Shown here piece by piece: positions 25,094-49,367 of a stretch of DNA of 59,403 nucleotides. This DNA comes from Candidatus Pacearchaeota archaeon. Lineage in GTDB: Archaea > Nanobdellota > Nanobdellia > Pacearchaeales > GW2011-AR1. The stretch is from contig JAAOYK010000062.1 of NCBI GenBank assembly GCA_018221305.1, positions 1-59,403 of the forward strand. The letters run 5' to 3'. The notes beneath the pieces were generated by a model that saw nothing but the letters and a program-made list of their open reading frames with translations, was not told the DNA's origin and ran no database searches. Each line of letters opens with the position of its first letter. Positions within the stretch are counted from its first letter, which is position 1. A program made the position numbers and the translations under genes.

Positions 25094-26038
25094 ATGGAAA
25101 AAACATCAAAAATATATGTTGCAGGACATAACGGGCTTGCAGGCTATGCTATAGTTAAAGAACTAAAAGCAAACGGGTATCATAACCTGGTTTACAAAAC
25201 AAGAGACGAGTTAAATCTAAAAAATTTAGAAGAAGTAGAGAAGTTTTTTAAAAATCAAAGACCAGAATATGTTTTTATTGCTGCTGCTAAAGTTGGAGGG
25301 ATAAAAGCTAATAAAGAGAAAAAAGCAGAATTTATATATGACAATCTTCAGATTCAAAACAATTTAATACATTTGTCATGGAAATACAATGTCAAAAAGT
25401 TATTATTTCTTGCAAGTAATTGTATGTATCCTAAAGAATCATTACAACCGATCAAAGAAGAATTTTTCCTTACTGGCGCGCCAGAACCTACAAACGATGC
25501 ATTTGCCGTTGCAAAAATTGCAGGAGTAAAAATGTGTCAAGCCTATAATCAGCAATACGGATGCAAATTTATAAGTGTTGTCCCGTCAAGTTTATACGGA
25601 GAAAATGATAATTTTGATTTGAAGTCGTGTCACCTTCTTCCAGCGCTTATTCGACGTTTTCACGAAGCAAAATTAAGAAAAAGCAATATAATCGAGCTTT
25701 GGGGAAGCGGGAGACCAAAAAGAGAATTAATGTATGCAAGAGACCTGGCACGTGCTTTAATCTTTTTAATGAGAAATTATGAAACTACACAACTAATTAA
25801 TATTGGTCCGGGACAAGATAAATCAGTAGAAGAAATTGCAAATATTGTCAAAGAGATTGTTGGATTTGACGGAGAAATTGTTTTTGATAAAACTAAACCT
25901 GACGGGGTGTTTAGGAAATTGCTTGATACTACTAAAATTAAGGATCTTGGATGGACTCCAAAAACAGATTTAAAAACAGGAATCAAAAAAACCTATGATT
26001 GGTTTAAAATTAACTATGCAAGCCTACAAAATCTCTAG
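25094..26038 (+). CDS. GDP-L-fucose synthase (Fcl/ColC)-like epimerase-reductase with catalytic Tyr replaced by Phe
   Basis: AGHNGLAG, AAAKVGGI, SNCMYP, PTNDAFAVAKIAG, WGSGRPKRE, KPDG. Confidence 0.88.
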   Translation: MEKTSKIYVAGHNGLAGYAIVKELKANGYHNLVYKTRDELNLKNLEEVEKFFKNQRPEYVFIAAAKVGGIKANKEKKAEFIYDNLQIQNNLIHLSWKYNVKKLLFLASNCMYPKESLQPIKEEFFLTGAPEPTNDAFAVAKIAGVKMCQAYNQQYGCKFISVVPSSLYGENDNFDLKSCHLLPALIRRFHEAKLRKSNIIELWGSGRPKRELMYARDLARALIFLMRNYETTQLINIGPGQDKSVEEIANIVKEIVGFDGEIVFDKTKPDGVFRKLLDTTKIKDLGWTPKTDLKTGIKKTYDWFKINYASLQNL

Positions 26039-27203
26039 TTTTTTCTAAAAAATAATCAAGATGATCATTCTCTAAATCTTGATGCACACCAATATGCAAA
26101 CCTTTTTCGCCAATATATTCTGATTCTGGGAAATCGCCACGAGTATGACCCATGAATTTAAAACTGTCGTACCCTGTAGGTATTGAGTCAAATAATACAC
26201 GAGTTTCAATACCATTTTGTTCTAAGTGTTGAGCATATTGTTCTCGAGTAAAAGGCGCATCTTCGCTTAAAATTATTGGAAATGCATGTGGGCCGATAAC
26301 CTCATAATCTTCTTTTTTAAAAGTTTGAAGGATTGGACCAAATTCTTGAAGATTTTCAATAAGATAATCAAGGTTTCCGATTCTTTTCTCTAAAATATCA
26401 TGATAAATATCCAAAGTTCCAAGCCCTACAGCTGCCTCTAATTCGTTCATTTTTGTAGAGTATCCAATACGCTGAAACGTAAAACGCATATCCTTACCAT
26501 CTTGAAATCTTCTTTGACAGTAATCACCAGTAATGTTCATACGGCACGGGCTGCATGAACACCATCTACCATGAGAACGAAGTGATCTTAATATTTTTGC
26601 ATAATCCTTATTATCTGTTGTAATAATTCCACCTTCGACACTAGAAATAATGTGTGCCAGATATAAACTAAAAGCGCCCATATCACCCATAGTTCCTGCA
26701 TCACGTCCATGATATTTTGTTCCGTGAGCTTCTGCTGCATCTTCAATAACTTTTAAATCATATTGTTTAGCTAATTGTGATATTTTATTCATGTCTGCAG
26801 GCTTACCCATAAGATGTACTGGCATTATAGCAATTGTATCTTCATTAATTTTTTCTTTAATCCTTTCTGGATTAATATTTAAAGTGTCACGCTCTACATC
26901 AACAAAGTTTGGTACAAAGCCAGCATTAATAACAGAATTTGCAGTAGCCACAAAAGTCAGTGAAGGAATAATTACATTATCCCCCCTTTTAGCCCCGTAA
27001 TCGTAAAGTACTGATAAAGCTAAAGTGTCAGCATCAGTACCAGAAGTTACTGCTACTGCCTCTTTGACACCTATTAAATCAGCAAATCTTTCTTCAAATT
27101 CTTTGACATATTTTCCTTGAGAAACTCGTTTAGATTCTAATGCTTTATTTACTAATTCTTTTGCTTTATCTGTGATAGTTATTGTTCCAAATGGATATCT
27201 CAT
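26010..27203 (-). CDS. DegT/DnrJ-fold PLP/PMP enzyme of the His-type RfbH(E1)/ColD 3-dehydratase subgroup
   Basis: SGTDA, TFVAT, PVHLMG, EDAAEAHG; FSLYLAHIISSVEGG has His at the Schiff-base Lys position; HGRWCSCSPC...C Cys cluster. Confidence 0.85.
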   Translation of the reverse strand: MRYPFGTITITDKAKELVNKALESKRVSQGKYVKEFEERFADLIGVKEAVAVTSGTDADTLALSVLYDYGAKRGDNVIIPSLTFVATANSVINAGFVPNFVDVERDTLNINPERIKEKINEDTIAIMPVHLMGKPADMNKISQLAKQYDLKVIEDAAEAHGTKYHGRDAGTMGDMGAFSLYLAHIISSVEGGIITTDNKDYAKILRSLRSHGRWCSCSPCRMNITGDYCQRRFQDGKDMRFTFQRIGYSTKMNELEAAVGLGTLDIYHDILEKRIGNLDYLIENLQEFGPILQTFKKEDYEVIGPHAFPIILSEDAPFTREQYAQHLEQNGIETRVLFDSIPTGYDSFKFMGHTRGDFPESEYIGEKGLHIGVHQDLENDHLDYFLEKTRDFVGLHS

Positions 27204-27270
27204 TTTTATAATTACAAAAACCTCCTTTTTACTTATAAATACGATTGTTATACAACAGAATATACAAATC

Positions 27271-27278
27271 TTTAAAAG
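27271..27278 (+). promoter_or_regulatory. Archaeal TATA box (leaderless-type spacing)
   Basis: TTTAAAAG starts 30 nt upstream of ATG 27301. Confidence 0.55.
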
Positions 27279-27300
27279 CAAAAATATTTATTGTTAACTT

Positions 27301-28200
27301 ATGATTATTACTCTTAATCCTGAAAAGGACGATATTCCGCAAACAAATTCTATTGATCAAGAACAAGCATTAGAAATATTTGAAAAAATCTGTTATACAA
27401 GAGCTTTTGAAAAACAGGTAAAAAAGTCTTATGATACTCATGATATCAAATGTCCTGTTTATTTATCAGTCGGACAAGAAGCAGCATCTGCCACAATTTC
27501 TACTTTTTTTAAACCAGATTTAATATTTACACAGCATAGAGGACATGCATATTATTTATCTTTTGGAGGAGATAAAGACAAGATTGTTGACGAATTATTA
27601 GGAAGAGATTCTGGATGTAATCGAGGTAGGGGCGGATCTCCAGGCGTACAGGATTTAAATATTGGAATGATTGGTCATCACGGGTTAATCGGAGAAAATG
27701 TACCATTAGCAGTAGGGGCAGCAGTAGGAGACACTACAAAAAAAGTATTGTGTGTTTTTGGTGACGGAGCTGCTGAGGAAGATTATATTTTTACAGCGAT
27801 GGCTTTTGCTCAAACTCATAAACTTCAAGTACTTTTTGTTTGTGAGGACAATGATTTATCAATACTTACAAAAAAGCATGTTAGACGAAACTGGGAGTTA
27901 AGTGATGCTTTAAAGGCCATTGGGATGCCTGCAGTTGATATACCTGATGATCCAGAACTTATTGCAAAATATGTTAACGAGTTTAAGCATAAACTTCCAG
28001 CATTTATTAATTGTAGAACGTGTAGACATTTATGGCATGTAGGAACAGGTCAGGACGGAACACCGCGCATAGATAGATTAAAAGAATACAAACAAAAACT
28101 TATACAAATGGGTTCTAGTTCATACAAATTACAAGAAATTGAAGATCAAAAATTACAGGAGGCAGAAACATTATGGCGCAGACACTTGGAGAGACAATAA
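27301..28200 (+). CDS. TPP-dependent dehydrogenase/carboligase E1 alpha-like subunit
   Basis: YLSVGQEA, HRGHA, GRGGS, FGDGAAEE...EDN (TPP-binding GDG-x-N motif). Confidence 0.9.
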   Translation: MIITLNPEKDDIPQTNSIDQEQALEIFEKICYTRAFEKQVKKSYDTHDIKCPVYLSVGQEAASATISTFFKPDLIFTQHRGHAYYLSFGGDKDKIVDELLGRDSGCNRGRGGSPGVQDLNIGMIGHHGLIGENVPLAVGAAVGDTTKKVLCVFGDGAAEEDYIFTAMAFAQTHKLQVLFVCEDNDLSILTKKHVRRNWELSDALKAIGMPAVDIPDDPELIAKYVNEFKHKLPAFINCRTCRHLWHVGTGQDGTPRIDRLKEYKQKLIQMGSSSYKLQEIEDQKLQEAETLWRRHLERQ

Positions 28201-29096
28201 AAGAAATCACGCGTAAGCATTTAGAAGAAAATAATGGCATTATCCTTGGCCAATGCCTTAGTGCTGTTGGGTGGGTCAATAATACAGTTCCAGATACAAA
28301 AAATATTATTGAGCTTCCTATGACTGATGTTGCTGGAGCAGGGATTGCGGCAGGAGCTGCTATAACCGGAAGAAGACCAATTTTTGTTATAAGATTTCAG
28401 GATTTTATGTTTCTAAACTCTAGCACATTAGTTAACTATGCAGCTAAAGCAAAACAGATCTTTAATGTGAATGTTCCAGTATTTATTAGAGCCTTAGCAA
28501 CCGAAGGAAATGGAACTGGTCCTGTACACTCTGGGGTCTTGCATGGAATTTTTATGCATATGCCTGGATTTAAGGTCTGTTCACCAATGACTCCTGGAGA
28601 ATATAAAGAAGTTTGGAGCGAGTTCATGAAAAGTGATGGGCCAATGTATGTTAGTGAACATAGGAAGAGCTTTAATCAAATTGAAGAAATACCAGACATC
28701 ACTACAACAGACGCAGAAATTACTATTTATGGCATTTCAACATCACGTTTCAGTATAGTACAAGCTATTGAGATGCTAAAAAATGAAGGAATAAAATGTA
28801 ACTTTGTAAACATTTTATGGCTTAAGCCTTTAAAACTTACAGAAAGAATGACAGAACCTTTACTTAAAACAGGTATGGGATTAATTGTTGATACTGATTT
28901 TGAAATTGCAGGAGCATCACAGTCTATTGCTTATGAATTAATGAAAAAAACAAAAAAGTATGTAGAAGCATTAGGTGCTATGGACAAAAGCGTTGGTACA
29001 GCAAAAAGATATGAAAACGGAACACCTAGTCCTGAAAAAATAGTTGCAAAAGTTAAAGAATTAATTGAAATTAGAAAACAATCAAATACGCAATAA
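28173..29096 (+). CDS. TPP-dependent E1 beta / transketolase C-terminal-like subunit
   Basis: ELPMTD..G.A.GAA..G.RPI, GPVHS, PG..V..P.TP and L..L.PL pyrimidine-binding/C-terminal patterns; overlaps the alpha gene. Confidence 0.85.
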   Translation: MAQTLGETIKEITRKHLEENNGIILGQCLSAVGWVNNTVPDTKNIIELPMTDVAGAGIAAGAAITGRRPIFVIRFQDFMFLNSSTLVNYAAKAKQIFNVNVPVFIRALATEGNGTGPVHSGVLHGIFMHMPGFKVCSPMTPGEYKEVWSEFMKSDGPMYVSEHRKSFNQIEEIPDITTTDAEITIYGISTSRFSIVQAIEMLKNEGIKCNFVNILWLKPLKLTERMTEPLLKTGMGLIVDTDFEIAGASQSIAYELMKKTKKYVEALGAMDKSVGTAKRYENGTPSPEKIVAKVKELIEIRKQSNTQ

Positions 29097-29528
29097 ATAT
29101 TTTTGTAAAAGAGGCTTTAAAGTCCTAAATAAAGGAATTATTTCAATTTTATCTCGCGGGATTAAAAATCCACCTTTTCCTTCCATAACTTTTACATTTG
29201 ACAAGGATTTTAGATCATTATCCGGAATCACAGATTCATATAAAGTATAATTAAACTTTTTATTTAACACATTGATAAATGTAAGATCAGCAATACGTTT
29301 TGAGCCCTCATAAATCATGTCAGTAACTTTTGGTCCTAATTCTTCAAGAAGTTCTCTTTTTAATGCCTGAGTTTCAGTTTCATCATCTTCTATTGCTCCA
29401 CCAAAAAAAGTGTAATGTAGTCTATATTCTTCTATCCAATAAGTATCATCTTTTTGTTGAAGATAAAAATCTGTATGACCGGGATTTGTAATAACAAGGC
29501 CTACACCGTAATATGTTTTATCATCCAT
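29082..29528 (-). CDS. NUDIX hydrolase
   Basis: Nudix box GGAIEDDETETQALKRELLEELG. Confidence 0.88.
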   Translation of the reverse strand: MDDKTYYGVGLVITNPGHTDFYLQQKDDTYWIEEYRLHYTFFGGAIEDDETETQALKRELLEELGPKVTDMIYEGSKRIADLTFINVLNKKFNYTLYESVIPDNDLKSLSNVKVMEGKGGFLIPRDKIEIIPLFRTLKPLLQKYLLRI

Positions 29529-29577
29529 AGATATTTCAACTATATAGCAGCTTATTAATATTTGTATAATCATAAAC

Positions 29578-29585
29578 TTTAAAAG
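29578..29585 (+). promoter_or_regulatory. Archaeal TATA box (leaderless-type spacing)
   Basis: TTTAAAAG starts 30 nt upstream of ATG 29608. Confidence 0.55.
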
Positions 29586-29607
29586 TAAGACATTTCTTAA
29601 TTGAATT

Positions 29608-30159
29608 ATGAAAAGAGCATTGGTTTTAACAGGAAATCTAGTACAAGATCATGAATATATTTATCCTTATTACCGTCTAAAAGAAGAAGGATTTGAGGTG
29701 ACTACAGCACTTAAAGATGCAAAAGCATGCCTAGGAATTTTAGGTACAAACATACCTTCAGATAGAGATGCTAAAATTATAAGTTATGAAGAAATGAGGA
29801 TTGAAGATTTTGACATATTAGTAATTCCTGGTGGTGCAAAATGTATGGAAAAACTGCGTCAAGAAAAAGGTGTACTTAATTTTATCAAAGAGTTTAATGA
29901 CGCAGGCAAAGTTATATCAAGTATTTGCCATGGAGCTCAATTACTTATCTCTGCAAAAATTGTTAATGGTAGGCGGATTTCTGGATATTATAGCATAATG
30001 GATGATATAAGCAATTCTGGGGCAGAATATGTTGACGCACCATATGTTACAGATAATAATATTATTAGTTGTCCACATTACAAATATTTAGGAGACTGGA
30101 TGAAAGAAACATTTAATGTCTTTAATAAAAAAAATGATCCGGAAAGTTCAAAATTCTGA
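29608..30159 (+). CDS. DJ-1/PfpI family protein
   Basis: DHEYIYP, VIPGG, SICHG (nucleophile Cys). Confidence 0.9.
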   Translation: MKRALVLTGNLVQDHEYIYPYYRLKEEGFEVTTALKDAKACLGILGTNIPSDRDAKIISYEEMRIEDFDILVIPGGAKCMEKLRQEKGVLNFIKEFNDAGKVISSICHGAQLLISAKIVNGRRISGYYSIMDDISNSGAEYVDAPYVTDNNIISCPHYKYLGDWMKETFNVFNKKNDPESSKF

Positions 30160-30892
30160 TTTAGACTCAAGGCGTCTTTCTGAAATTAACATCAAAATTG
30201 AGAATGAATTAGATGAATTTGATTTCTCAAAAGTTGTTGTTAGAAAGCCTTGGGGGCACGAATATTTAGCATATAGAGAAGAAGGTGTATCAATATGGAT
30301 ATTGCATATAAAAAAAGATGCAGCAACATCTACACATTGTCATTTAGATAAACGTACAGACTTATTGGTCTTATCTGGACACGTGGTATGCACTACATTA
30401 GAGAAAAAAATAGATTTAGTAGAAGGAGACCTCTTAATACTAAACAAAAAAGTTTTTCATTCAACAAAAGCAGCATCTGAAAGCGTATTAGTAATGGAAA
30501 TAGAATTTCCATCAAAAAAAACAGATCTTGTACGTTTGAATGATTCTTATGGAAGAGAGAAAAAAGGTTATGAAAAACAAAAAGATATGTGTTTTGATTT
30601 ATCTGAATATCAGCGAGTTTTTTTAAATGGTACTGACCTAAATCGTATGATTGGAAATATGAACCTAAGCATTGAAGAATTTGACGACATCAAAGGGTTA
30701 AAAGATTATTTGAAAAGAAATGATAGTCTTTTAGATGTTTTTATTACAGGCGAAATCAGAATAAATAATGACGAATCAATAATCAGTGTAGGAGATGCGC
30801 TGAAATTAGAGGATTTAAAACAAGAAAATATTGAAATAACAAAACCAATAAAAGTGCTTAATATTAAAAAAAATATATTAGACTTTGACTAA
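30116..30892 (+). CDS. Cupin-domain protein (mannose-6-phosphate isomerase type II C-terminal-like)
   Basis: VRKPWGHEY, TSTHCH..K, VFHS, DLVRLNDSYGR. Confidence 0.75.
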   Translation: MSLIKKMIRKVQNSDLDSRRLSEINIKIENELDEFDFSKVVVRKPWGHEYLAYREEGVSIWILHIKKDAATSTHCHLDKRTDLLVLSGHVVCTTLEKKIDLVEGDLLILNKKVFHSTKAASESVLVMEIEFPSKKTDLVRLNDSYGREKKGYEKQKDMCFDLSEYQRVFLNGTDLNRMIGNMNLSIEEFDDIKGLKDYLKRNDSLLDVFITGEIRINNDESIISVGDALKLEDLKQENIEITKPIKVLNIKKNILDFD

Positions 30893-30895
30893 GAA

Positions 30896-31546
30896 ATGGT
30901 GATAAAAGGAATATTGTTTGATCTTGATGGAGTAATTGTTGATACTATGCATGACCATTTTGTTGCATGGAAAGCTGCGTTTAAAGATTATGGAGCAGAT
31001 ATTGATAAAACAGAGTATTACAAGTTAGAAGGACGACGCATAATACAAATAGCAGAGATATTAGCAGAAAAGTACGGTATACCTAAAACAGAGGCTGAGA
31101 AGATTCATGATTTAAAATTAAAGTATGCTGCTACTGGAAAAAGGGCTAAGTTTTATGAAGGAGTTAAAGAGTTAGTCAGTAACTTAAAAACAAAAGGCAT
31201 AAAAATTGGAATTGTAACAGCTAGTGTTAAAGGATTTTTAGAAGAAAAAGTTGATAAAGAATTTTTAGACAAATTTGATGTTATTCTTACAGGAGACATG
31301 TATGAAAAAGGAAAACCAGATCCTGACCCATATATCCAGGGAAGACTTGCATTAGGCCTTGAGGAAGAGGAATGTATTGTTATAGAAAATGCACCATTGG
31401 GTGTTAAAGCAGCAAAAGCTGCAAACATGTATTGTATTGCTATAGAATCTACGCTTGATAAATCCTATTTAGGTGAAGCAGACGTAATTCTTGAAAAATT
31501 TGGTGATTTAAAAACTACTGATAAAATTAAAAAAGTTCTTGAATAG
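30896..31546 (+). CDS. HAD superfamily phosphatase (beta-PGM/CbbY-like)
   Basis: FDLDGVIVDT, VTAS, GKPDPDPY, VIENAPLGV.AA. Confidence 0.9.
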   Translation: MVIKGILFDLDGVIVDTMHDHFVAWKAAFKDYGADIDKTEYYKLEGRRIIQIAEILAEKYGIPKTEAEKIHDLKLKYAATGKRAKFYEGVKELVSNLKTKGIKIGIVTASVKGFLEEKVDKEFLDKFDVILTGDMYEKGKPDPDPYIQGRLALGLEEEECIVIENAPLGVKAAKAANMYCIAIESTLDKSYLGEADVILEKFGDLKTTDKIKKVLE

Positions 31547-31621
31547 TTGTAAAATGTAGATTTTAAAAAACATATAAATCCATATATATAAACTTATAAA
31601 CAAAAATTGAGTCCTAAAAAA

Positions 31622-32572
31622 ATGAAGTTTTATGAAGATAAAAAGGTGTTAGTTGCCGGAGGTACGGGCCTTATTGGTAAAACCCTTGTAAACAAATTAA
31701 TAGATCATGGCGCACAAGTAAGAATTGCATCTATTGATGATCCTTCTCGGGCTCATGAAGATGCAGAATTTTGTAGGTTTGATTTAACAAAATATGATAA
31801 CTGTATGGAAGCGTGTGAGGACATGGATTATGTCTTTAACCTACTCTGCATAAAAGGGTCACCAAAAGTAATGAAAGAAAGATCAGCATCAATATTTACA
31901 CCAATGATTCTTTTTAATACAAATTTATTAGAAGCTGCTAGAAAAAGTGATATTAAAAGATATCTTTATACCAGTACGTCAGGAGTTTATACACCAACAG
32001 ACATTGCTAAAGAAGATGACATGTGGAATGGATTTCCTTCAAAAAAAGACTGGTATGCAGGATGGGCTAAAAGAATGGGAGAACTGCAAGTTGAAGGTTA
32101 TAAAAAAGAATATGGATGGGACCACATTTCAATTGTCAGACCAGCTAATATTTATGGGCCTCATGATGATTTTCATTCTGATGGTGCAATGGTTGTACCT
32201 TCACTTATCAGAAAAGCGTGTGCAAGTGATGGAGAATTAGAAGTGTGGGGAGATGGTAGCGAGATTAGAGATTTTGTTTATGTTGAAGATATTGCCAGAG
32301 GTATGATGATGACATTAGAACAATCCCCAAATGTTCCAATAAATCTTGGAAGCGGAAAACGTTATTCAATAAAAGATTTAGCAGAAACTGTCGCATCAAA
32401 TTTTGATCCAGCACTTAAACTTAAATGGAAACCAACAGAATTTGGTGGAGATAAAATAAGAGTTTTGGATGCTAGCCGTGCAAAAGATCTTATTGGGTGG
32501 GAATCAAAAATAACATTGCAAGAGGGTATTAAAAAAACAATGGATTGGTATAAATCAACCTATGGCAAATAA
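31622..32572 (+). CDS. NAD-dependent epimerase/dehydratase (Fcl/GME-like), atypical active site
   Basis: AGGTGLIG, AGWAKRMGE, RPANIYGP.D, VWGDGS..RDFVY. Confidence 0.85.
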   Translation: MKFYEDKKVLVAGGTGLIGKTLVNKLIDHGAQVRIASIDDPSRAHEDAEFCRFDLTKYDNCMEACEDMDYVFNLLCIKGSPKVMKERSASIFTPMILFNTNLLEAARKSDIKRYLYTSTSGVYTPTDIAKEDDMWNGFPSKKDWYAGWAKRMGELQVEGYKKEYGWDHISIVRPANIYGPHDDFHSDGAMVVPSLIRKACASDGELEVWGDGSEIRDFVYVEDIARGMMMTLEQSPNVPINLGSGKRYSIKDLAETVASNFDPALKLKWKPTEFGGDKIRVLDASRAKDLIGWESKITLQEGIKKTMDWYKSTYGK

Positions 32573-34565
32573 TGCAAAAACAGCAGGCAAAACAGAATTA
32601 GGACTTGTACAAATAAATAATAGTTTTGGGAATCAAACATATTTTCCACTGTCTATAGGATTTTTACAAGCTTATGCTCAGGAACACCTTGCAAACATTA
32701 ATGATTTTAGTTTTAAAACACCAATATATAAACGTGGTCCAATAAAACAAAGTCTTGAACATTTAACAGGGTCGCGTGCAGTATTTTTTAGTACGTATAA
32801 CTGGAACATGAACGCAGCTTCACAAATCGCAAGCGAGCTAAAAAAGGTAGATCAAGAAATATTAACCGTTTTTGGCGGATGCGAAATTCCAAAAGATAAT
32901 GCTGAACAATTTTTACGGGATAGACCTTTCATTGACCTGGCAGTTCATGGGGAAGGTGAAAAAGTTTTTACATCAATTTTAGAGAATTATAATGACAGAA
33001 ATTGGGAACAAGTTCCTTCTTTAAGTTATATTGATGGAAATGGAAAGTATAGAGAAACTGAAAAAGCTAAAAGAATTGATGACTTGACAACAATACCCTC
33101 TCCATACCTTGCAGGTGTTTTTGATCAAATGATGAAAGATAACCCTCAAGATATATGGCTTGGATTATGGGAAACAAACAGAGGATGCCCTTTTCAGTGT
33201 AGTTTTTGCGAATGGGGCTCAGACTATCAAAAAAGGTTACATCAGCATGAACTTGAGCGAGTCTTGAAAGAAGTTGACTGGTTTAGTAAAAATAAGGTAG
33301 AATTTGTGTTTTGTGCAGACTCTAACTTTGGAATGCTGGAGAGAGATTTAGACATAGCTAAACAGTTTGTGACAAATAAAGAAAAGTTTGGATACCCAAA
33401 AGCATTTTCAGTACAAAACACAAAAAATTCTACTGAAAAATCTTACCAAGTTCAAAAGACATTATCTGACGGAGGACTTAGTAAAGGAGTAAACCTAGCA
33501 TTTCAGTCAATGAATCCAGATACATTGAACGCTATTGGGCGTAAAAATATTCCAAATGATACATTTCATGAACTGCAAAGAAGGTTTAATATTGACGGGA
33601 TTGAAACATTTTCTGACATTATTTTAGGACTTCCAGAAGAAAGTTATCAAACATTTACTAAAGGTATTTCTGAACTAATCAGCGGAGGTCAACAAAACAG
33701 GATCCAGTTCATTAATTTATCAATACTTGCAAACTCTCAGATGGGTGACCCTGAATATCAAAAAAAGTATGGTTTCCATACTGTTGAAGGAGATATGATA
33801 AACATTCATGGAAGTTTGGATGCTGGAACAGACATCATGGAAAAACAAACATTAGTTGTTGGAACTAAAGACATGCCAAAAGAAGACTGGATTAAAGCAC
33901 GAACTTTCGGATGGATGACATCAGCGTTATATTTTAACAAATTATTACAAATCCCATTTAATGTAATTAATTCGTGTTATGATGTAGATTATGATAAAAT
34001 TGTTGAAGAATTTATGAAAGTTGACAAAAAAGACAGCCCGATAATTCATGGCATGAACCAATTTTTCCAAGAACGTGCACACGGAGCTCAAAAAGGTGAA
34101 CCAGAATTTTGTAGGTCAGAGAAATATTTAAACATCTGGTGGCCTGCTGATGAACTTTCAATGATTAAAATATGTGCTGAAGGAAATCTTGAAGGATTTT
34201 ATCAGGAGTCGCAAAAGGTTATTGAAAAAATATTAGACTCAAGAAGTATTGATTACAATCCTGGTCTAATCTCAAACGCAATTGACCTAAATAATCAATT
34301 GATCAAAAGACCGTTTACTAATACTGATGTTCAAGTTGACCTTGAACATAATGTGTGGGAAATATATAAAGATTCAAAAGCTGGAAACCCAATTGATGTA
34401 CAAGAAGGCAAATTTTCATATTTAATAGACAGAAGTACAGAGACATGGGATTCCTGGAATGAGTGGGCACAAAAAGTTGTATGGTATGGAAACAAGCGAG
34501 GAGCTTACGTATATAAATGTAAACCAGTAGAAAACGCAAGCGAAACATTGGAGGAAAAATTATGA
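32562..34565 (+). CDS. Cobalamin-binding-domain radical SAM protein
   Basis: N-terminal B12-like domain (YNWN..FGG..HGEGE), IPSPYL, ETNRGCPFQCSFC (CxxxCxxC), DSNFG, ILGLPEE. Confidence 0.9.
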   Translation: MANNAKTAGKTELGLVQINNSFGNQTYFPLSIGFLQAYAQEHLANINDFSFKTPIYKRGPIKQSLEHLTGSRAVFFSTYNWNMNAASQIASELKKVDQEILTVFGGCEIPKDNAEQFLRDRPFIDLAVHGEGEKVFTSILENYNDRNWEQVPSLSYIDGNGKYRETEKAKRIDDLTTIPSPYLAGVFDQMMKDNPQDIWLGLWETNRGCPFQCSFCEWGSDYQKRLHQHELERVLKEVDWFSKNKVEFVFCADSNFGMLERDLDIAKQFVTNKEKFGYPKAFSVQNTKNSTEKSYQVQKTLSDGGLSKGVNLAFQSMNPDTLNAIGRKNIPNDTFHELQRRFNIDGIETFSDIILGLPEESYQTFTKGISELISGGQQNRIQFINLSILANSQMGDPEYQKKYGFHTVEGDMINIHGSLDAGTDIMEKQTLVVGTKDMPKEDWIKARTFGWMTSALYFNKLLQIPFNVINSCYDVDYDKIVEEFMKVDKKDSPIIHGMNQFFQERAHGAQKGEPEFCRSEKYLNIWWPADELSMIKICAEGNLEGFYQESQKVIEKILDSRSIDYNPGLISNAIDLNNQLIKRPFTNTDVQVDLEHNVWEIYKDSKAGNPIDVQEGKFSYLIDRSTETWDSWNEWAQKVVWYGNKRGAYVYKCKPVENASETLEEKL

Positions 34566-35293
34566 CAAAAGAGACAGCATTGATTACAGGCGCAAGTAAC
34601 GGGCTTGGAGAACACTTGGCATATGTTTTTGCAGATAATGGTTATGATCTAATTTTAAACGGAAGAAACCTTGGAGACTTAGCCAGAATTTCAAGACGTT
34701 TTGAAAAAAATGCAGATACTAATGTTGAAATTATTCAAGGAGACTTAAGAGAAAACGAGACAATAGATAAATTATATGAAGCAGCACAAAAACAGGATAT
34801 CACTGTTTTAATTAATAATGCGGCACTTCCTTGCCCAGACGTGCCTTTTGAAAACATAACAGAACAACATATTTATGATATGGTATCAACCAACTTAATG
34901 GTTCCAATAAGATTAACGCAAAGAATTTATCCAATATTCCAAGAAAAAAATAAAGGACGCATAGTAAATATTAATTCTATAATAAGCCTAGAAACAAAAA
35001 ATAAAAGAACACTCTCTACGGCTTGTAAAAGCGGATTGGCAGGATTTTCAAAAGGATTAAGAACTGAAGCTGCAAAACATAACATTTCAATCCTAGACGT
35101 TTACATGAGCAGGGCACGAACCAAACCGCATTATGAATGGGGGATGGATACAGATTATGTCGTAAACAAGATTTTTGAATATCAGGCGCAGCCAGAAGTT
35201 GATGAACTAGTAATTGACGGACGACCATTAAAGGTAAGAGAAAAAACAAAACCGTTAAGAATTTATATAGATGCTAGGCATAAGAGTATATAA
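34562..35293 (+). CDS. Short-chain dehydrogenase/reductase, atypical active site
   Basis: TGASNGLG, LINNAA, NINS; STACK in place of YxxxK. Confidence 0.82.
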   Translation: MTKETALITGASNGLGEHLAYVFADNGYDLILNGRNLGDLARISRRFEKNADTNVEIIQGDLRENETIDKLYEAAQKQDITVLINNAALPCPDVPFENITEQHIYDMVSTNLMVPIRLTQRIYPIFQEKNKGRIVNINSIISLETKNKRTLSTACKSGLAGFSKGLRTEAAKHNISILDVYMSRARTKPHYEWGMDTDYVVNKIFEYQAQPEVDELVIDGRPLKVREKTKPLRIYIDARHKSI

Positions 35294-35309
35294 AAAGAAC
35301 AAAGAAAAA

Positions 35310-36260
35310 ATGGATACAAAAAAAGTTTTAGTATGTGGAGCAACAGGGTTTATTGGGAGAAACACAACAGAAAAGTTAGCACAACGCCCAGACTTGGAAG
35401 TCTATGGTACTTACAATAATCGGCCAAGATATGATAATGACAACGTAAACTGGGTTAAAGCAGACCTTACAAACAAAGAAGATGTAAACAATGTATGCAA
35501 AGGTATGGATGTTGTTATCCAGATGGCAGCATCCACTACAGGTGTAAAAGATTCTATAAACGCCCCACATATACATCTAGCTGACAACGCAATAATGAAC
35601 ACGCTACTTTTGCGTTCTGCTTATGATAATAATGTAGGGCAATTTATCTTCCCGAGTTGCACAGTTGTATACCCATCAAGTGATCAGTTAATCAAAGAAA
35701 CAGACTTTACAGGAGAAATTCATCCAAAATATTTTGGTGGTGCATGGATGAAGATTTATGCTGAAAAAACTGCAGAGTTTTATGCTGGACTTGGAAAAAC
35801 AAAACATACAGTTTTCCGTCATTCAAACGTTTATGGACCATATGACAAATATGATCTGGAAAAGTCACATGTTTTTGGTGCAACAATTGCAAAAATAATG
35901 ACTGCAAAAGATAATGATAAAATTGTTGTCTGGGGAAAAGGATTAGAAGAGCGAGACTTGCTTCATGTTGATGATTTAGTCTCGTTCATGCAAACAGCAA
36001 TAGATACGCAAAGTACACCTTATGAGCTTGTCAATGTTGGATTAGGTGAATCTATTTCTGTAGACGGACTAGTTAAAAAAGTTATTAAACATTCAAACAA
36101 AAGTTTGGATATTGAGTATGACGAAACAAAACCAAACGTTATGACTAAAGTTGCACTCGACTGCAGCAAAGCTAAACAGGTTTTTGGATGGACCCCAAAA
36201 ATAACTTTAGACGAAGGTATTAAGAAAACAATTAAATGGTATGAAGAAAATTTACTATAG
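35310..36260 (+). CDS. NAD-dependent epimerase/dehydratase, atypical active site
   Basis: CGATGFIG, SCTVVY, GAWMK, RHSNVYGP.D..SHVFGA, VWG.G...RD. Confidence 0.85.
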   Translation: MDTKKVLVCGATGFIGRNTTEKLAQRPDLEVYGTYNNRPRYDNDNVNWVKADLTNKEDVNNVCKGMDVVIQMAASTTGVKDSINAPHIHLADNAIMNTLLLRSAYDNNVGQFIFPSCTVVYPSSDQLIKETDFTGEIHPKYFGGAWMKIYAEKTAEFYAGLGKTKHTVFRHSNVYGPYDKYDLEKSHVFGATIAKIMTAKDNDKIVVWGKGLEERDLLHVDDLVSFMQTAIDTQSTPYELVNVGLGESISVDGLVKKVIKHSNKSLDIEYDETKPNVMTKVALDCSKAKQVFGWTPKITLDEGIKKTIKWYEENLL

Positions 36261-36280
36261 TTTAAAATTTGTTTAGAAAA

Positions 36281-37606
36281 ATGCAAAAGATAGGTTTTAT
36301 ATTTCCAAGTAGTGATTATTTACATGATCCGTTTAGAGGGGACCCTCATACACATTTTCAAATACTAACAGTATTAGATGATCGGCTCGGAAATAAAGTA
36401 GATACAAGCCTTATTGATCTTCGTGGAATTAAAAGAAAATTTGCTCATTACGTAATTCCAGAACAAGACGTTTTCCTACATTCCACATATACACTAGATT
36501 GGGAAGAACAAAAAGAAATTGTTGAAGGAATAAGAGACAGATATCCAAATGCTAAGCATATAGCAGGGGGGCCGCATACCAGCTGTTTTCAAAAAGAAAG
36601 CAAGCAAGTCTTTGATTCTATAATTTTGGGCGATGGAGAAGAATCTATTGTACAAGCAATCAATGATAACGAAAAAAATGAATTACAGCAAATTTATGAA
36701 CAACAGGGCAAAATTGATGTAAAAGAGTATCCATTTCCAAGACGACACTATCTCCCACATGCAACTATTGCGCGAAAGGGGTTAGTGAGTAGAAGGGATA
36801 ACAAAGAACTCGAGAATTTATTGAGCACAACAGTCATTTTTAGTAGAGGATGTACAGACAAGTGTGCTTTTTGTGCAATGCCAGGCATAAAAAAATATAA
36901 TCCAGGAATTCGGTTCCGTGATCCTGAATCTATTGAAGCAGAGCTTGAATATTTAAAATCAGATTTTGGGATTCAAGCAGTTAGTCTTTTAGATGAAATA
37001 GGATTTCCACCCCGCTTCGATAAAGCGCAACCATATATTGAAGCAATTGGTAGAACACAAATTCCTTGGAAAGGTCAGTGTAGGGTAGACAATGTTACAA
37101 AAGACGTTGCCGCACTTTTAGCAGACTCTGGGTGTGAAGTCATGTGTCTTGGAGTAGAAAGTGTGTATCAAAATTCCCTTGACCTAATAAAAAAAAGGAT
37201 ACAAGTTGAACAATCAAAACAAGCAATTAAACTATTAAACAAACAAGGTATTGAGACACGAGTTTATATGATAATTGGTCTTCCAGGAGAAGATAACAAG
37301 GTTGTTGAAAAAACATGGGATTTTATCAAAGAAACAAATCCTGCATCTGTTTATCTTTCATTATTTACTGCACGCCCGGGAACAGATGTTTTTAACAATC
37401 CACAAAATTACGGTATAAAAAACATCGATTCTGACTGGAGTAAAACAATGCATATTTATGGCAGATATGAGCATGAACGGCCACGATTAACTTTTGAATA
37501 TGAAGATAATCCTTTCTGGGGAAAAGCAATGAAAAGTGAAGAAATTGTTGACAAATATTTAGAATTACAACAAAAAGTAATAGATAATGGATATGGGCCA
37601 GTATAA
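36281..37606 (+). CDS. Cobalamin-binding-domain radical SAM protein
   Basis: AGGPH, GDGEES, FSRGCTDKCAFC (CxxxCxxC), GVES, IIGLPGE. Confidence 0.9.
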   Translation: MQKIGFIFPSSDYLHDPFRGDPHTHFQILTVLDDRLGNKVDTSLIDLRGIKRKFAHYVIPEQDVFLHSTYTLDWEEQKEIVEGIRDRYPNAKHIAGGPHTSCFQKESKQVFDSIILGDGEESIVQAINDNEKNELQQIYEQQGKIDVKEYPFPRRHYLPHATIARKGLVSRRDNKELENLLSTTVIFSRGCTDKCAFCAMPGIKKYNPGIRFRDPESIEAELEYLKSDFGIQAVSLLDEIGFPPRFDKAQPYIEAIGRTQIPWKGQCRVDNVTKDVAALLADSGCEVMCLGVESVYQNSLDLIKKRIQVEQSKQAIKLLNKQGIETRVYMIIGLPGEDNKVVEKTWDFIKETNPASVYLSLFTARPGTDVFNNPQNYGIKNIDSDWSKTMHIYGRYEHERPRLTFEYEDNPFWGKAMKSEEIVDKYLELQQKVIDNGYGPV

Positions 37607-37779: not shown

Positions 37780-38777
37780 GTGAGTGTAAGATTCTGGTCT
37801 TTTATAAATTTTGCGATGGTTTTTCCTACTTCTTCGTTTGCAAGACAAGAAGGATGCCCGCCATCTATCCCAACTTGCTGATCATGGGTCAAGTAACTAG
37901 TCGCATTATGGATATTTGTTACACAATAAATATCATATTTGTTACAGAATTGTCTTGCATCATCAATATATCCGGGAGTAAAAGTATCTCCAGTAAAATC
38001 GTAAAAAACAATAACTAATATTTGCTTTCTTTCATCTAATGTATTCTTTAATCTAAGTATTTGTTTTTTAGACTCTTCAATAAAAAAGGGTCCATATAAG
38101 TCGACTGGAGGAAGCATGTTAGCACTTCTTTTAAATGCCATAATCAGCGGGCTTGATTTTTGGTACATATAACTTAAAAAAGATGATTTTCGCTTTACAT
38201 CAAACATAAAATCATAAATCGGTCTTTTTTTAGGAGGATCCATTGGTCTTACAAAATCGTGTTCTATCGGAACCATGATAATAAGGTCTCCTTCAATAAA
38301 GTATTCCTCATTAAAGTAATAACTTGCGACCATATGTTTAAACCCGTAAGCCCCTTGACCATAGTTTAAAACTTGATTATCAGAAAGATTAAAAATTTGC
38401 TGAAAATGATGAGACACGGTTTCATCATCTTTTAAGAACCATCCAAACATGAACGAGTCACCAAAAAAGGCATACTTATTATCAGCCTTAAGAACATCAA
38501 TATCTACATCGTTTCCTCTGGCCCCAACATTATTTATGCGTGCCTCCATTTTGTTTTTAAGACCTTTTTGGACATTATACCAACCATCCTGATTCGGACG
38601 ATTATAAAGAAATCCATTAGGTTCATAATTTTTTATTAAAACTTTTCCAACAGTCATCCTGACAAAAATTTCTCCAAAAAGAAAAAGAACAAATAAGACT
38701 ATTAAAAGCAAAATGAAATTTGCAATTAATTCTTTCTTTTTTTTCTGTTTTGATTTAGGTGTCTTTTTAGTTTTCAT
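37776..38777 (-). CDS. SGNH/GDSL hydrolase-like membrane-anchored protein
   Basis: N-terminal TM helix; INNVGARG, FFGDSFMFG, VLNYG, DGGHP. Confidence 0.8.
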   Translation of the reverse strand: MKTKKTPKSKQKKKKELIANFILLLIVLFVLFLFGEIFVRMTVGKVLIKNYEPNGFLYNRPNQDGWYNVQKGLKNKMEARINNVGARGNDVDIDVLKADNKYAFFGDSFMFGWFLKDDETVSHHFQQIFNLSDNQVLNYGQGAYGFKHMVASYYFNEEYFIEGDLIIMVPIEHDFVRPMDPPKKRPIYDFMFDVKRKSSFLSYMYQKSSPLIMAFKRSANMLPPVDLYGPFFIEESKKQILRLKNTLDERKQILVIVFYDFTGDTFTPGYIDDARQFCNKYDIYCVTNIHNATSYLTHDQQVGIDGGHPSCLANEEVGKTIAKFIKDQNLTLT

Positions 38778-40527
38778 TTATGGTTTTAGTGCTATCCCAT
38801 ATGTGTCTGGGATTATCACTTCTTTTTATTAAGAATTTATCAATTACAAGGTAGTCAATCTCAGTGCCCATCATACATTTATAAGCATCATACATTGAGC
38901 ATACAATTGGTTCACCACGAATATTGAATGATGTATTAATTAATATTGGAATTTTTGATAGTTTTCCAAATTCTTTTATTAAATCATAATACAACTCATT
39001 TTGTTTTCTTGTAACTGTCTGTAATCTTCCAGTACCATCTACGTGAGTTACTGCAGGAATTTTTTTGTGCCACTGTTTTAATATTGGGTAGACCATTAGC
39101 ATAAAATCAGTAGATTCGGGTATTGGCTGATCACAATCAAAATATTTTAGTGCATCATCTTTACAAATCACTGGAGCAAAAGGTCTAAATTTTTCACGAT
39201 GTTTTACTTTAAGATTTAAAAGATCTTGTGCCTTTAGATTGCACGGGTTTGAAAGTATACTTCGAGCACCTAGCGCGCGCGGGCCCCATTCCATACGTCC
39301 CTGAAACCATCCCACAACACTATTTTCGTAAATTAATTTTGCAACACTGGTTATTAACTTTTTGTTATCTTTAAACGTAGAGTATTTAATTTTATTTTTG
39401 TCTAAAAAACGCTTTATTTGATCAGCAGTAAACGAAGGGCCAAGATATGCTGAATTTAAACCATGGGTCCTTTTATTTTTTAAAAGCTGATTATAGATAT
39501 AAAATGCTACCCCTAAACTTGTACCCCCATCTCCAGGATCTGGCTGCGACCAAAAGTGCTTAAAAGGAGTATTTTTTAAAATTTTGCCATTAGCTACACT
39601 ATTTAATCCACAACCTCCTGCAAGAACAAGATTTTCAGATTTTGTTTCGTTATATATATGGTTTAACATTTTGATTAGAATATCCTCATAAACAAACTGC
39701 AAGGCTGCAGCAATATCTTTATGCCTTTGAGTAACTTCAGACCCTGGCTTTCTTACAGAACCTCCAAGAAGCCGACATAATTTTCTTGATGGCATCCTTT
39801 CTGAAAAATGGTATACAAAATTGCTCATATCAAAACGAAAACTTCCATCATTTTTTAAGTCTATTAAGCTCATTAATTTCTCATAATAAGGATTCTTTTC
39901 CCGATCAGATTCTCCATATGCTGCTAATCCCATTACCTTATATTCTGAATTATTTGCCCTAAAACCAAGATATGTAGTAATAGTAGAGTACAAAAGTCCT
40001 AAAGAGCTTGGAAAATCTATTTCTTTTAATAATTTAACGTTATTTTTATCCCCAACCCCATACGAACTAGTAGTCCATTCCCCTACACCATCTAAATTAA
40101 GAATTGCTGCTTTTTCAAACGGACTTGGAAAAAAAGATCCTGCAGAGTGTGCTAAATGATGGTCCACAAATAAAAGTTCATTTTTAAAACCAAGTTTTTT
40201 GATCTTTTTTACTATTTTTAACTTTTCTGTAAACCACGGACTAATTGAGGATAAAAAAACCTTATAACTTCTTGGAAACATCTGAAGATGTTGATATATA
40301 ATTCTCTCAAACTTTAAAAAAGGTTTCTCATAAAATCCAATATACTCTACTTCGTTTAAAGTTATATTCGCTATTTCTAAACATTTTTCAATAGCTTTTT
40401 TTGGAAACGAAACATCATGCTTCTTTCTTGTAAGCCTTTCCTCTTGTATAGCTGCTACTACTTTTCCGTCTTTTAAAAGAGTTGCTGAGGAGTCATGATA
40501 ATAACAGCTAATTCCTAAAATGTACAT
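38767..40527 (-). CDS. O-carbamoyltransferase (NodU/CmcH/SxtI family)
   Basis: YHDSSA..EERLTRKKH, HHLAH, DGVGE, EYKVMGLAAYG, AGGCGLN, EWGPRALGARS, THVDGTGR, NTSFN. Confidence 0.95.
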   Translation of the reverse strand: MYILGISCYYHDSSATLLKDGKVVAAIQEERLTRKKHDVSFPKKAIEKCLEIANITLNEVEYIGFYEKPFLKFERIIYQHLQMFPRSYKVFLSSISPWFTEKLKIVKKIKKLGFKNELLFVDHHLAHSAGSFFPSPFEKAAILNLDGVGEWTTSSYGVGDKNNVKLLKEIDFPSSLGLLYSTITTYLGFRANNSEYKVMGLAAYGESDREKNPYYEKLMSLIDLKNDGSFRFDMSNFVYHFSERMPSRKLCRLLGGSVRKPGSEVTQRHKDIAAALQFVYEDILIKMLNHIYNETKSENLVLAGGCGLNSVANGKILKNTPFKHFWSQPDPGDGGTSLGVAFYIYNQLLKNKRTHGLNSAYLGPSFTADQIKRFLDKNKIKYSTFKDNKKLITSVAKLIYENSVVGWFQGRMEWGPRALGARSILSNPCNLKAQDLLNLKVKHREKFRPFAPVICKDDALKYFDCDQPIPESTDFMLMVYPILKQWHKKIPAVTHVDGTGRLQTVTRKQNELYYDLIKEFGKLSKIPILINTSFNIRGEPIVCSMYDAYKCMMGTEIDYLVIDKFLIKRSDNPRHIWDSTKTINEN

Positions 40528-49297: not shown

Positions 49298-49367
49298 AAA
49301 AAAAGTTGTTATTTATATACTTTCAAAGATAATAAATTATTTAAACATATTTTAAAGACTCATATAC

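Follow-up and report, generated by a model that had tools for sequence, protein, structure and literature searches.

What does a thiamine diphosphate (ThDP)-dependent E1 alpha/beta pair do in an archaeal glycosylation island when no E2 or E3 gene accompanies it? The question is raised by a contig of 59,403 nucleotides from Candidatus Pacearchaeota archaeon (JAAOYK010000062.1 of assembly GCA_018221305.1; the whole stretch is called the window below), in which such a pair lies beside a putative sugar 3-dehydratase and is followed by PfpI, cupin, HAD, short-chain dehydrogenase/reductase (SDR) and radical S-adenosylmethionine (SAM) genes. A reading made earlier from the sequence only had proposed here a route to a branched sugar like yersiniose, and all genes that it named are found at the positions given, those of the cassette at 26010-37606, as open reading frames (ORFs) with domain profiles to match (Table 1). 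Our analysis leads to the view, to which we give a probability of roughly 0.55, that the pair is a lipoate-independent ThDP carboligase which builds a C-branch on a GDP-4-keto-(3-deoxy)heptose in an N-glycosylation island. Regarding the earlier proposal, an E1 other than that of pyruvate dehydrogenase (PDH) in a nucleotide-sugar setting is borne out, while the carboligation, the donor and the product of the pair are what we infer.

The two subunits belong to the E1 family by fold and motif, while they stand far from its catabolic members by score. E1 alpha keeps an intact ThDP motif (GDGAAEEDY...CEDN, that is GDG...N), lacks about 60 residues relative to PDH E1 alpha, and aligns with it only over residues 11-190 (72 bits). 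The best PDB matches reach 72 bits for alpha and 55 bits for beta, and against curated models alpha scores 129.5 bits with a cut-off of 393.85 (TIGR03182) and beta 88.9 with a cut-off of 321 (NF006667). The AlphaFold2 model of E1 beta (pLDDT 88.1) superposes on 3EXE_B with Z 32.1 and a root-mean-square deviation of 2.6 over 297 residues, and the fold it predicts is a complete E1 beta fold; the next-best structural matches are 1-deoxyxylulose-5-phosphate synthase (DXS) and transketolase (Z 25-29). For comparison we took the best 80 of 151 encoding stretches from a scan of species-representative genomes, 41 of which have complete 10-kb flanks (full-flank loci). In the alignment to 3DUF_B, Asp52 of E1 beta occupies the position of the ThDP-activating Glu (tplaE versus pmtD), and Asp is present there in 78 of 83 aligned E1 beta sequences, the five with Glu being second, ~27%-identical pairs. 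The beta residue at the place of the His that acylates lipoate reductively in PDH and branched-chain 2-oxoacid dehydrogenase (BCKDH) is His in 46, Ala in 29, Thr in one and Ser in one of 77 typed loci.

In the window there is no E2 or E3 gene, and the assembly (1.26 Mb, 67 contigs, completeness 60.7%) has no match to PF00198, the E2 catalytic domain, or to PF02852, the E3 dimerisation domain. Its single E1_dh match is the window E1 alpha, and its only biotin/lipoyl-domain match is an ORF of 132 amino acids (aa) on another contig (G000:C26:2140-2337, minus strand, locus L162); no E2 was seen in the four bacterial related loci scanned with Pfam. The absence is not proof, because the assembly is only 60.7% complete. 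Together with the low scores, these results agree with the sequence-only reading in that the pair comes without E2 and E3 and is not the E1 of PDH, BCKDH or acetoin dehydrogenase. A complex prediction for E1 alpha, E1 beta and the cupin gave a score of 0.00 with a mark of 0.32, and was used neither for nor against binding.

Of 2682 candidates, 1139 proved to be relatives of E1 alpha at E <= 1e-5. Eight of the 80 loci are labelled DPANN or other archaea and 72 are bacterial, the carriers being Nitrospirota, Planctomycetota including Brocadia, Omnitrophota, Elusimicrobiota, Verrucomicrobiota, Desulfobacterota-type bacteria, Alphaproteobacteria including Magnetospirillum sp. UT-4, Patescibacteria and others. 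In all 80 loci E1 alpha and E1 beta are adjacent, and in all 80 the pair stands amid sugar-tailoring genes; because of this recurrence the arrangement exceeds chance. An enzyme that forms a keto sugar (Cj1427-like, 4,6-dehydratase-like or His-type DegT) is encoded in 36 of the 41 full-flank loci. In Candidatus Brocadia pituitae (L040, 5492-8598) the cassette begins right after genes for flagellin, FliW, CsrA and a TPR protein, a context which suggests flagellin glycosylation in this bacterium. As a separate observation, five loci (L011, L035, L042, L051 and L077) hold a second E1 alpha/beta pair, ~30% (alpha) and ~27% (beta) identical to the window pair and with Glu kept, and in L011 the genes for its alpha and beta subunits are separated by one for a His-type DegT. 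Phage records gave four weak matches only (<=30% identity) and hence no support for a phage-borne E1 alpha. Plasmid records with E1 alpha matches number 258, all at <=32.5% identity, and two were inspected. One of them (L163) was dropped as a comparator, its surroundings being gamma-butyrolactone, acyl carrier protein and ketosynthase genes rather than sugar genes. The other, plasmid pSALBX2 of Streptomyces albogriseolus (L164), encodes an uncharacterised pair of canonical length (E1_dh 209 bits), whose neighbours are transporters, a P450 and a glycosyltransferase like EryCIII; its alpha subunit shares the GDGAAEE motif with the window E1 alpha, and the pair may be a sugar-branching one of the antibiotic type.

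As to the sugar that such an enzyme would meet, homology makes GDP-D-glycero-D-manno-heptose the most likely precursor, oxidised at C4 by a Cj1427-type dehydrogenase. The best models for the fused gene at 20264 are those of the GDP-heptose kinase (HddA, 258.7 bits, cut-off 600) and guanylyltransferase (HddC, 184.3 bits, cut-off 300), both under cut-off, and separate nucleotidyltransferase (NTP-transferase) or kinase genes are present in 33 of the 41 full-flank loci. Pfam scans of four bacterial loci reveal a similar logic, and one of them, L056, carries a GmhB-GmhA fusion with a full heptose route, kinase and NTP-transferase. The SDR at 22340 is canonical (YGKTK), has orthologues at 50-58% identity in 41 of the 80 loci, and matches 6VO6/6VO8, which we take to be Cj1427. 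Cj1427 is described as a C4-dehydrogenase which recycles alpha-ketoglutarate and turns GDP-D-glycero-D-manno-heptose into the 4-keto sugar, and a C3-dehydratase of Campylobacter jejuni takes its product in vitro (PMC10680097). That the SDR at 22340 could itself be a 4,6-dehydratase was rejected in view of the 6VO6 match and of a separate GMD-type dehydratase adjoining it in L044. The gene at 51858 is 4,6-dehydratase-like as claimed before, by its model score and its TSDK motif; it lies 14 kb away from the E1 cassette, and no orthologue of it is found near the E1 pairs of the 80 loci (matches <=35% identity). The keto sugar would thus probably arise via C4 oxidation with O-6 kept, because the SDR at 22340 matches 6VO6 and the gene at 51858 is distant and without nearby orthologues. 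Of the 3,6-dideoxy-4-keto precursor proposed earlier, the 3-deoxy part is the better founded.

The 3-deoxy part depends on the dehydratase gene, which diverges from the E1 pair as had been described (~97 nt between both starts). Its product aligns full-length with the Yersinia 3-dehydratase E1 (3BCX, 200.3 bits) and has His, aligned to His220, in place of the Schiff-base Lys (LYLAHIIS in the window, FYPAHHIT in 3BCX, with Lys there in the H220K mutant 3BB8), which upholds its assignment to the His type. The co-occurrence check suggested by the sequence-only reading has now been run: DegT genes are found in 44 of the 80 loci, all 44 have His instead of Lys, and Tyr-less SDRs recur as well. The dehydratase also has a four-Cys motif (CxCx2Cx9C), a probable Fe-S site, which is invariant in the window protein and 13 orthologues (56-62% identity) and whose spacing is unlike the Yersinia enzyme in the 3BCX alignment; 13 of the 44 neighbouring DegT proteins have the motif and 31 are without it, like ColD. 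Upstream, the GDP-fucose-synthase (GMER/Fcl) homologue at 25094 has Phe at the position of E. coli GMER Tyr136 (aFAvAK versus pYAiAK), as do 11 of 40 neighbouring GMER homologues, and keeps the equivalents of the epimerase residues Cys109 and His179. The protein is probably an epimerase that leaves the 4-keto group intact, and with Tyr lost and Cys and His kept it therefore fits an enzyme that would preserve the 4-ketone for carboligation.

In the sequence-only reading PfpI, cupin and HAD could pass for bystanders, a view that the gene fusions overturn. Among the 80 loci PfpI is present in 43, the cupin in 47 and both in 42, and HAD in 26, of which 23 have PfpI. Fusions in these loci, one of them confirmed by pairwise alignment, join cupin to E1 alpha (seven), E1 beta to cupin (one), E1 beta to PfpI (one, L006) and PfpI to cupin (three), and in nine loci the GMER homologue is fused to the cupin, eight of the nine with Phe at the Tyr position. 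Longer cupin homologues (n=62) are fused to ThDP enzymes of the acetolactate synthase (ALS)/YerE type in 58 cases and to HAD in four, the cupin-HAD fusions including P0123, P0124 and P0126. Longer E1 alpha homologues (n=21) comprise 15 proteins of the size of a cupin-E1 alpha fusion and five E1 alpha-E1 beta fusions, two of each verified, and one fusion to a B12-binding radical SAM enzyme, P0185 (779 aa, CPFNCSFC at residue 222), whose E1 alpha is 63% identical to that of the window. Because of these fusions PfpI, cupin and HAD belong to the thiamine enzyme's own unit, and the cupin is, as far as gene architecture can predict, an obligate partner of the ThDP enzyme.

What the helpers do is suggested in part by their families. 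In PfpI, Cys107, His108 and Glu16 are conserved at >=95% in 51 sequences; the DJ-1 family, to which it belongs, converts 2-oxoaldehydes to 2-hydroxy acids. The cupin has no match to Pfam PF01050 and only 21 bits to Cupin_2, PF01050 being present in 10-51% of the members of its relatives' clusters, which the Atlas names 'mannose-6-phosphate isomerase C-terminal'. Its model (pLDDT 91.1) has two barrels, the N-terminal one superposing on phosphomannose isomerase (PMI) 7ZVY_B with TMt 0.84 over 110 columns, and a comparison of the model with PDB returned generic bicupins (quercetinase, oxalate decarboxylase, seed globulins; TMq <=0.41) and a small PMI, with no specific function. The helpers could serve in donor supply, branch isomerisation or acceptor presentation. 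An analogy of HAD and cupin to the enolase-phosphatase and acireductone dioxygenase (ARD) of methionine salvage was set aside by reasoning, as many carriers are of anaerobe type and the signature is PMI- and not ARD-like. The Nudix gene behind E1 beta, possibly for a nucleoside diphosphate (NDP)-sugar hydrolase, has orthologues at 41-59% identity adjoining E1 beta in four DPANN loci, and a Nudix gene is also present in L056.

The same helpers accompany a second thiamine enzyme. In 80 metagenome loci found with an ALS-cupin fusion as query, 11 carry the cupin fusion, and PfpI adjoins 10 of these 11; among the 69 unfused YerE-like loci PfpI occurs in one, also the sole one with a separate cupin. 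The unfused ALS-type relatives sit with NTP-transferase, 4,6-dehydratase and DegT as in the yersiniose pathway. Three of the fusion loci (L082, L088, L089) share the order GT9, HAD, PfpI, cupin-ThDP enzyme, altronate/galactarate-dehydratase homologue, followed by methyltransferase, radical SAM genes, SDR and B12-radical-SAM genes. No match to TPP_enzyme_N was found in either the window or the assembly, and the E1 pair is not of the YerE-type single-chain architecture. Because PfpI, cupin and HAD travel with either fold, the E1 pair and the YerE-type enzyme appear to do the same kind of job. We put forward, tentatively and below even odds, that the Asp-containing E1, cupin, PfpI, HAD, Tyr-less GMER and a B12-radical-SAM enzyme form one unrecognised machine with two interchangeable ThDP architectures, E1- and ALS-type, which would furnish archaeal N-glycans, and bacterial surface or flagellar glycans, with a new class of high-carbon sugars (nonose or larger) that are both C-branched and C-methylated. 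Its chemistry would go beyond that of YerE, for example through a hydroxyacyl branch which the cupin would isomerise and radical methylation would extend. Independently of this, D-galactarate/altronate-dehydratase (GD_AH) homologues were seen directly adjoining cupin-ThDP genes of both the E1-type and the ALS-type version (Table 1), and a Pfam scan of the window proteins found no GD_AH gene there.

Radical SAM genes are nearly as regular a companion, being present in 62 of the 80 loci (37 of the 41 full-flank loci) and directly flanking the E1 pair in 23. Both window enzymes have CxxxCxxC, and their B12-binding domains score 29.9 and 27.1 bits, under the gathering cut-off of 32.1. The first, at 32562, is a probable C-methyltransferase and has orthologues at 42-51% identity in 16-24 loci; the second type has orthologues at 52-60% identity in ~9 loci. 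The accompanying SDRs at 31607, 34562 and 35271 are atypical like the GMER homologue at 25094, and only those at 22340 and 51858 (YDTSK) are canonical, as the earlier mention of atypical SDRs would have it. In the families of 31607 and 35271 Ala or Gly stands four residues ahead of Lys. Orthologues of the former (41-57% identity) often adjoin the first radical SAM type, and those of the latter (48-66% identity) are paired with the second in L005, L051, L060, L064 and L079, while the four orthologues of 34562 have Tyr, His, His and Tyr at the catalytic position.

The wider window carries markers of a small-genome archaeon (archaeal ribosomal proteins, SecY, AglB/STT3) and, at ~9.9-54 kb, a glycosylation island, which its AglB/STT3 homologue marks as a predicted protein N-glycosylation locus and in which GT4, WecG and AglB genes are joined by several glycosyltransferase genes, methyltransferase genes and a flippase gene. 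Upstream of the stretch that begins at 26010 are the Tyr-less Fcl homologue, a glycosyltransferase, an SDR and the fused HddC-HddA gene. Downstream, the carbamoyltransferase may possibly O-carbamoylate the sugar. Between it and the second radical SAM gene lies an ORF at 37776 with an FFGDSF motif reminiscent of SGNH/GDSL hydrolases. The PseF-like gene and the GFO/IDH/MocA gene could belong to a further activated-sugar pathway of this island, unrelated to the one discussed here.

Table 1. Features of the window and, in the last line, homologues in related loci
Feature	Position	Strand	Evidence
AglB/STT3 oligosaccharyltransferase homologue	11804..14713	+	STT3 66 bits and STT3-PglB_core
Fused HddC-like sugar-1-phosphate nucleotidyltransferase and HddA-like GHMP kinase	20264..22303	-	NTP_transferase and GHMP_kinases_N/C
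Cj1427-type GDP-heptose C4-dehydrogenase candidate (extended SDR)	22340..23320	-	366.2 bits to PDB 6VO6/6VO8, residues 16-323
GDP-fucose-synthase (GMER/Fcl) homologue	25094..26038	+	309.7 bits to 1E6U; NCBIfam 422.5 bits, cut-off 500
Putative 3-dehydratase, His-type, pyridoxamine phosphate (PMP)-dependent, DegT/RfbH-like	26010-27281 (ORF)	-	likely true start ATG ~27203; RfbH model 260 bits, cut-off 423
E1 alpha-like ThDP subunit, 299 aa	27301..28200	+	Pfam E1_dh 76 bits
E1 beta-like subunit	28173..29096	+	Transket_pyr and Transketolase_C
Nudix hydrolase (not named in the sequence-only reading)	29082..29573	-	canonical Nudix box
DJ-1/PfpI-family enzyme	29608..30159	+	138 bits
PMI-like metal cupin with second beta domain	30116..30892	+	KPWGxE, HxH, H115 invariant
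HAD-IA phosphatase-type enzyme	30896..31546	+	DLDG (DxD) motif
Extended SDR	31607..32572	+	without canonical Tyr, Cys, His
Putative B12-binding radical SAM enzyme, KedN5-like	32562..34565	+	KedN5 family 253.5 bits, cut-off 700; CPFQCSFC at residue 209
Classical SDR	34562..35293	+	S-T-A-C-K, Ser at catalytic Tyr position
GMER-like extended SDR	35271..36260	+	without Tyr at K-4; epimerase Cys and His kept
Second putative B12-binding radical SAM enzyme	36269..37606	+	CTDKCAFC at residue 195
ORF of 333 aa	37776-38777	-	N-terminal hydrophobic stretch, FFGDSF motif; no Pfam/NCBIfam match
NodU/CmcH-type carbamoyltransferase	38767..40527	-	Carbam_trans_N 259.8 bits, Carbam_trans_C 231.3 bits
PGDH-like D-2-hydroxyacid dehydrogenase overlapping inositol-monophosphatase-family gene	43992-45669	-	198 bits to TIGR01327, cut-off 454
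GFO/IDH/MocA oxidoreductase	45761-47038	-	
PseF-like CMP-sugar cytidylyltransferase	47892-48545	-	55 bits
GmhA-like SIS isomerase and transaldolase/FSA-like gene	48638..50234	+	gmhA 69.4 bits, cut-off 209; fsa_talC 104.4 bits, cut-off 246
4,6-dehydratase-like SDR	51858..52793	+	dTDP-glucose 4,6-dehydratase model 179.6 bits, cut-off 365; YDTSK, TSDK
GD_AH homologues	L040:16202-16657, L044:14374-15918, L088:11559-13106, L089:12484-14010		

From homology and gene context, on which every step is based, the following pathway can be proposed. The SIS isomerase and the transaldolase-like gene would supply a heptose phosphate, which the fused HddA-HddC protein would convert to GDP-D-glycero-D-manno-heptose, and the Cj1427-type dehydrogenase would oxidise it at C4. 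The His-type PMP enzyme, probably of the Fe-S type, may then strip the 3-hydroxyl to give GDP-3-deoxy-4-keto-heptose, a 3,6-dideoxy product being expected only if a 4,6-dehydratase also acts, and the Tyr-less GMER homologue would epimerise without reduction, so that the ketone survives. At this point the E1 pair would decarboxylate a 2-oxo acid, pyruvate by analogy, and add the acyl-anion equivalent to the C4 ketone, which would yield a 4-C-acyl tertiary alcohol. Acting as one unit with the thiamine enzyme, the PMI-like cupin, PfpI and HAD may either prepare the donor, by synthesis or trimming, or catalyse isomerisation of the alpha-hydroxy-ketone branch; the B12-radical-SAM enzymes may C-methylate this branch or lengthen it, and its reduction or epimerisation may fall to the atypical SDRs. 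Finally, carbamoyl- and methyltransferases would decorate the sugar, and glycosyltransferases and AglB would attach it to proteins.

Several points weigh against this pathway. We know of no member of this E1 subfamily with a known activity, substrate or product, and Asp at the cofactor-Glu position could mean an altered or reduced ThDP chemistry. Most matches of the precursor genes fall under the curated cut-offs, and five of the 41 full-flank loci are without a keto-sugar-forming gene within 10 kb. The ALS-cupin versions of L082, L088 and L089 have no DegT nearby, which suggests that the ThDP-cupin-PfpI-HAD unit can work without the 3-dehydratase. A dehydratase of the Fe-S type needs an electron donor, and none is encoded nearby, though no dedicated search was made. 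The pair of L164 is only 32% (alpha) and 28% (beta) identical to the window pair, and its beta subunit keeps Glu; the likeness to AviB1/B2, Pau11/12 and KbDH is one of gene organisation and description. In addition, the PMI-like cupin, HAD phosphatase, kinase and nucleotidyltransferase could also fit a route at the level of sugar phosphates.

This last point opens the way to a quite unlikely alternative, in which the ThDP enzyme, transketolase- or DXS-like, would extend a chain by joining a 2-oxo acid such as hydroxypyruvate to an aldose phosphate; the cupin would then turn the longer ketose phosphate into an aldose phosphate, and GHMP kinase, HAD phosphatase and nucleotidyltransferase would activate it by the logic of heptose or lincosamide octose. 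The type-II PMI signature of the cupin with its barrel match and its Atlas name, the cupin-HAD fusions, the frequent kinase or NTP-transferase genes (33/41 full-flank loci), and DXS and transketolase as next-best beta matches (Z 25-29) all speak for it, and so does the PGDH-like 2-hydroxyacid dehydrogenase of the window, of which weaker homologues directly adjoin PfpI-cupin-E1 in L024, L035 and L059. However, the cupin is fused in nine loci to the homologue of GMER, a GDP-sugar enzyme, a separate and complete heptose-phosphate route coexists with the module in L056, and the uniform association with the His-type 3-dehydratase and the Cj1427-like enzyme points to an NDP-4-keto-sugar acceptor; the E1-type sugar enzymes treated in a recent review branch and do not extend their sugars (PMC12247030). 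Branching by the window pair could also proceed with a donor that is longer than pyruvate, an unlikely though somewhat better prospect: the unit, with the GD_AH homologue in some loci, would build a polyhydroxylated 2-oxo acid and ligate it to the keto sugar, the product being a long-branched high-carbon sugar and not a C2-branched one, as proposed for erwiniose, caryophyllose and gastriose. GD_AH dehydratases, as makers of 2-keto-3-deoxy acids, adjoin the cupin-ThDP genes in L040, L044, L088 and L089, PfpI is a DJ-1-family member with its Cys-His-Glu intact, the 2-hydroxyacid dehydrogenases adjacent in three loci give a possible route to the 2-oxo-acid donor, and YerE-like enzymes are reported to use C4-C8 hydroxy-2-oxo acids (PMC9306805). 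Yet the window lacks a GD_AH gene, and the same review describes known E1-type sugar enzymes as apparently specialised for C2 branches (PMC12247030).

That the pair is an ordinary catabolic E1 for pyruvate, acetoin or branched-chain substrates, merely located in a sugar island and with E2 and E3 in the unassembled 40%, is very improbable. The folds of both subunits, the ThDP motif, the incompleteness of the assembly with its one small biotin/lipoyl-domain ORF, and database records that call some relatives 'pyruvate dehydrogenase E1' or 'acetoin oxidoreductase' would be in its favour, but the sugar-tailoring context of 80/80 loci already contradicts it, as do scores at one third or less of the cut-offs, the short alpha subunit with its limited alignable part, Asp for the cofactor Glu, a lipoyl-acylation His lost in 31 of 77 loci, and fusions to cupin, PfpI and radical SAM.

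If the C-branching carboligase is the right reading, DPANN archaea and many uncultured bacteria, among them Nitrospira, anammox Brocadia, Omnitrophota, Elusimicrobia and Patescibacteria, would decorate their surfaces with an undescribed branched sugar derived from heptose. The 1139 relatives would then give a rich natural source of E1-type carboligases that stand alone, a kind of enzyme in demand for the biocatalytic synthesis of chiral tertiary alcohols (PMC12247030). Asp for Glu at the cofactor-activating residue would be a testable oddity in thiamine enzymology, and the fusion network would for the first time place a PfpI/DJ-1 subfamily, a PMI-like cupin and Tyr-less SDRs in a functional setting, at the side of a thiamine carboligase. 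The literature searched contains no description of the cassette; the survey of sugar-branching ThDP enzymes by Krug et al. 2024, not covered by that search, may list members.

Compared with the E1 of 2-oxoacid dehydrogenases (PDH, BCKDH, acetoin:DCPIP oxidoreductase), the window pair has the fold of both subunits (beta Z 30-32) and the GDG...N motif in common and differs by E2 and E3 not being found, by its scores under cut-off, the truncated alpha, the Asp of beta and the sugar-cluster context in every locus examined. With the yersiniose A pathway (YerE/YerF; ErwE, MygE, MMAR_2332) it would share ThDP-dependent acyl-anion addition, a 3-deoxy-4-keto NDP-sugar and an E1/ColD-type His dehydratase, and the cupin that goes with the E1 pair is elsewhere fused to a relative of the YerE-type fold; YerE, however, is a single-chain flavoprotein of the acetolactate-synthase type which acts on a CDP-hexose, whereas the window enzyme is an unrelated E1 alpha/beta. 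The capsular GDP-heptose pathway of C. jejuni, which comprises HddA, HddC, GmhA/B, Cj1427, a C3-dehydratase, cupin epimerases and GMER-like C4-reductases, is similar in its precursor genes, the close Cj1427 homologue, a 3-dehydratase dependent on pyridoxal phosphate (PLP) or PMP, and GMER-like proteins, for which the matches to 7M13 and 7ANH, entries of the C. jejuni type, reach 287-309 bits. That pathway ends with a Tyr-containing C4-reductase and unbranched heptoses, whereas the window GMER homologue is without Tyr and is followed by thiamine and radical SAM enzymes; the window dehydratase has its four-Cys motif, whereas the C. jejuni enzyme is described as using PLP and glutamate (PMC10680097).

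The nearest relatives in organisation are the E1-type pairs AviB1/B2, Pau11/12 (= Plm8/9), EvdU5/EvdS3 and KbDH-alpha/beta (PMC4425429, PMC4802897, PMC10338323, PMC12247030), and a 2025 review groups such sugar-branching pairs as 'alpha-KADH2' (PMC12247030). In avilamycin, paulomycin, aldgamycin and kibdelomycin, 4-keto sugars receive a C2 branch derived from pyruvate through E1 pairs (PMC4425429, PMC4802897, PMC12247030); the evidence is genetic for the first three, and KbDH has been assayed in vitro on ketone analogues (PMC4425429, PMC4802897, PMC10338323, PMC12247030). The idea of an E1-type heterodimer for two-carbon sugar branching, put forward in the sequence-only reading, was therefore already in print for avilamycin, paulomycin, everninomicin and kibdelomycin. 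Because E1-type branching is known from these actinomycete antibiotics, the window pair would be a variant of known sugar-branching E1 enzymes, and what is new here is Asp in place of Glu, the finding that every DegT counted is of the His type, the probable Fe-S subtype of the dehydratase, the fusion network, and the fusion of the same cupin, with PfpI adjoining, to YerE/ALS-type ThDP enzymes. Like the alpha-KADH2 enzymes, it is a two-subunit E1 without E2 and E3, encoded among deoxy-keto-sugar genes. Unlike them, the window-type genes belong to surface-glycan loci, N-glycosylation or flagellin-adjacent, of DPANN archaea and many uncultured bacterial phyla, and not to antibiotic clusters; their sugar is probably GDP-linked and heptose-derived, whereas the antibiotic sugars are linked to dTDP or UDP; their alpha subunit has only ~295 aa and beta has Asp for Glu; and the pair has its obligate cupin, PfpI and HAD partners together with a coupling to B12-radical-SAM enzymes.

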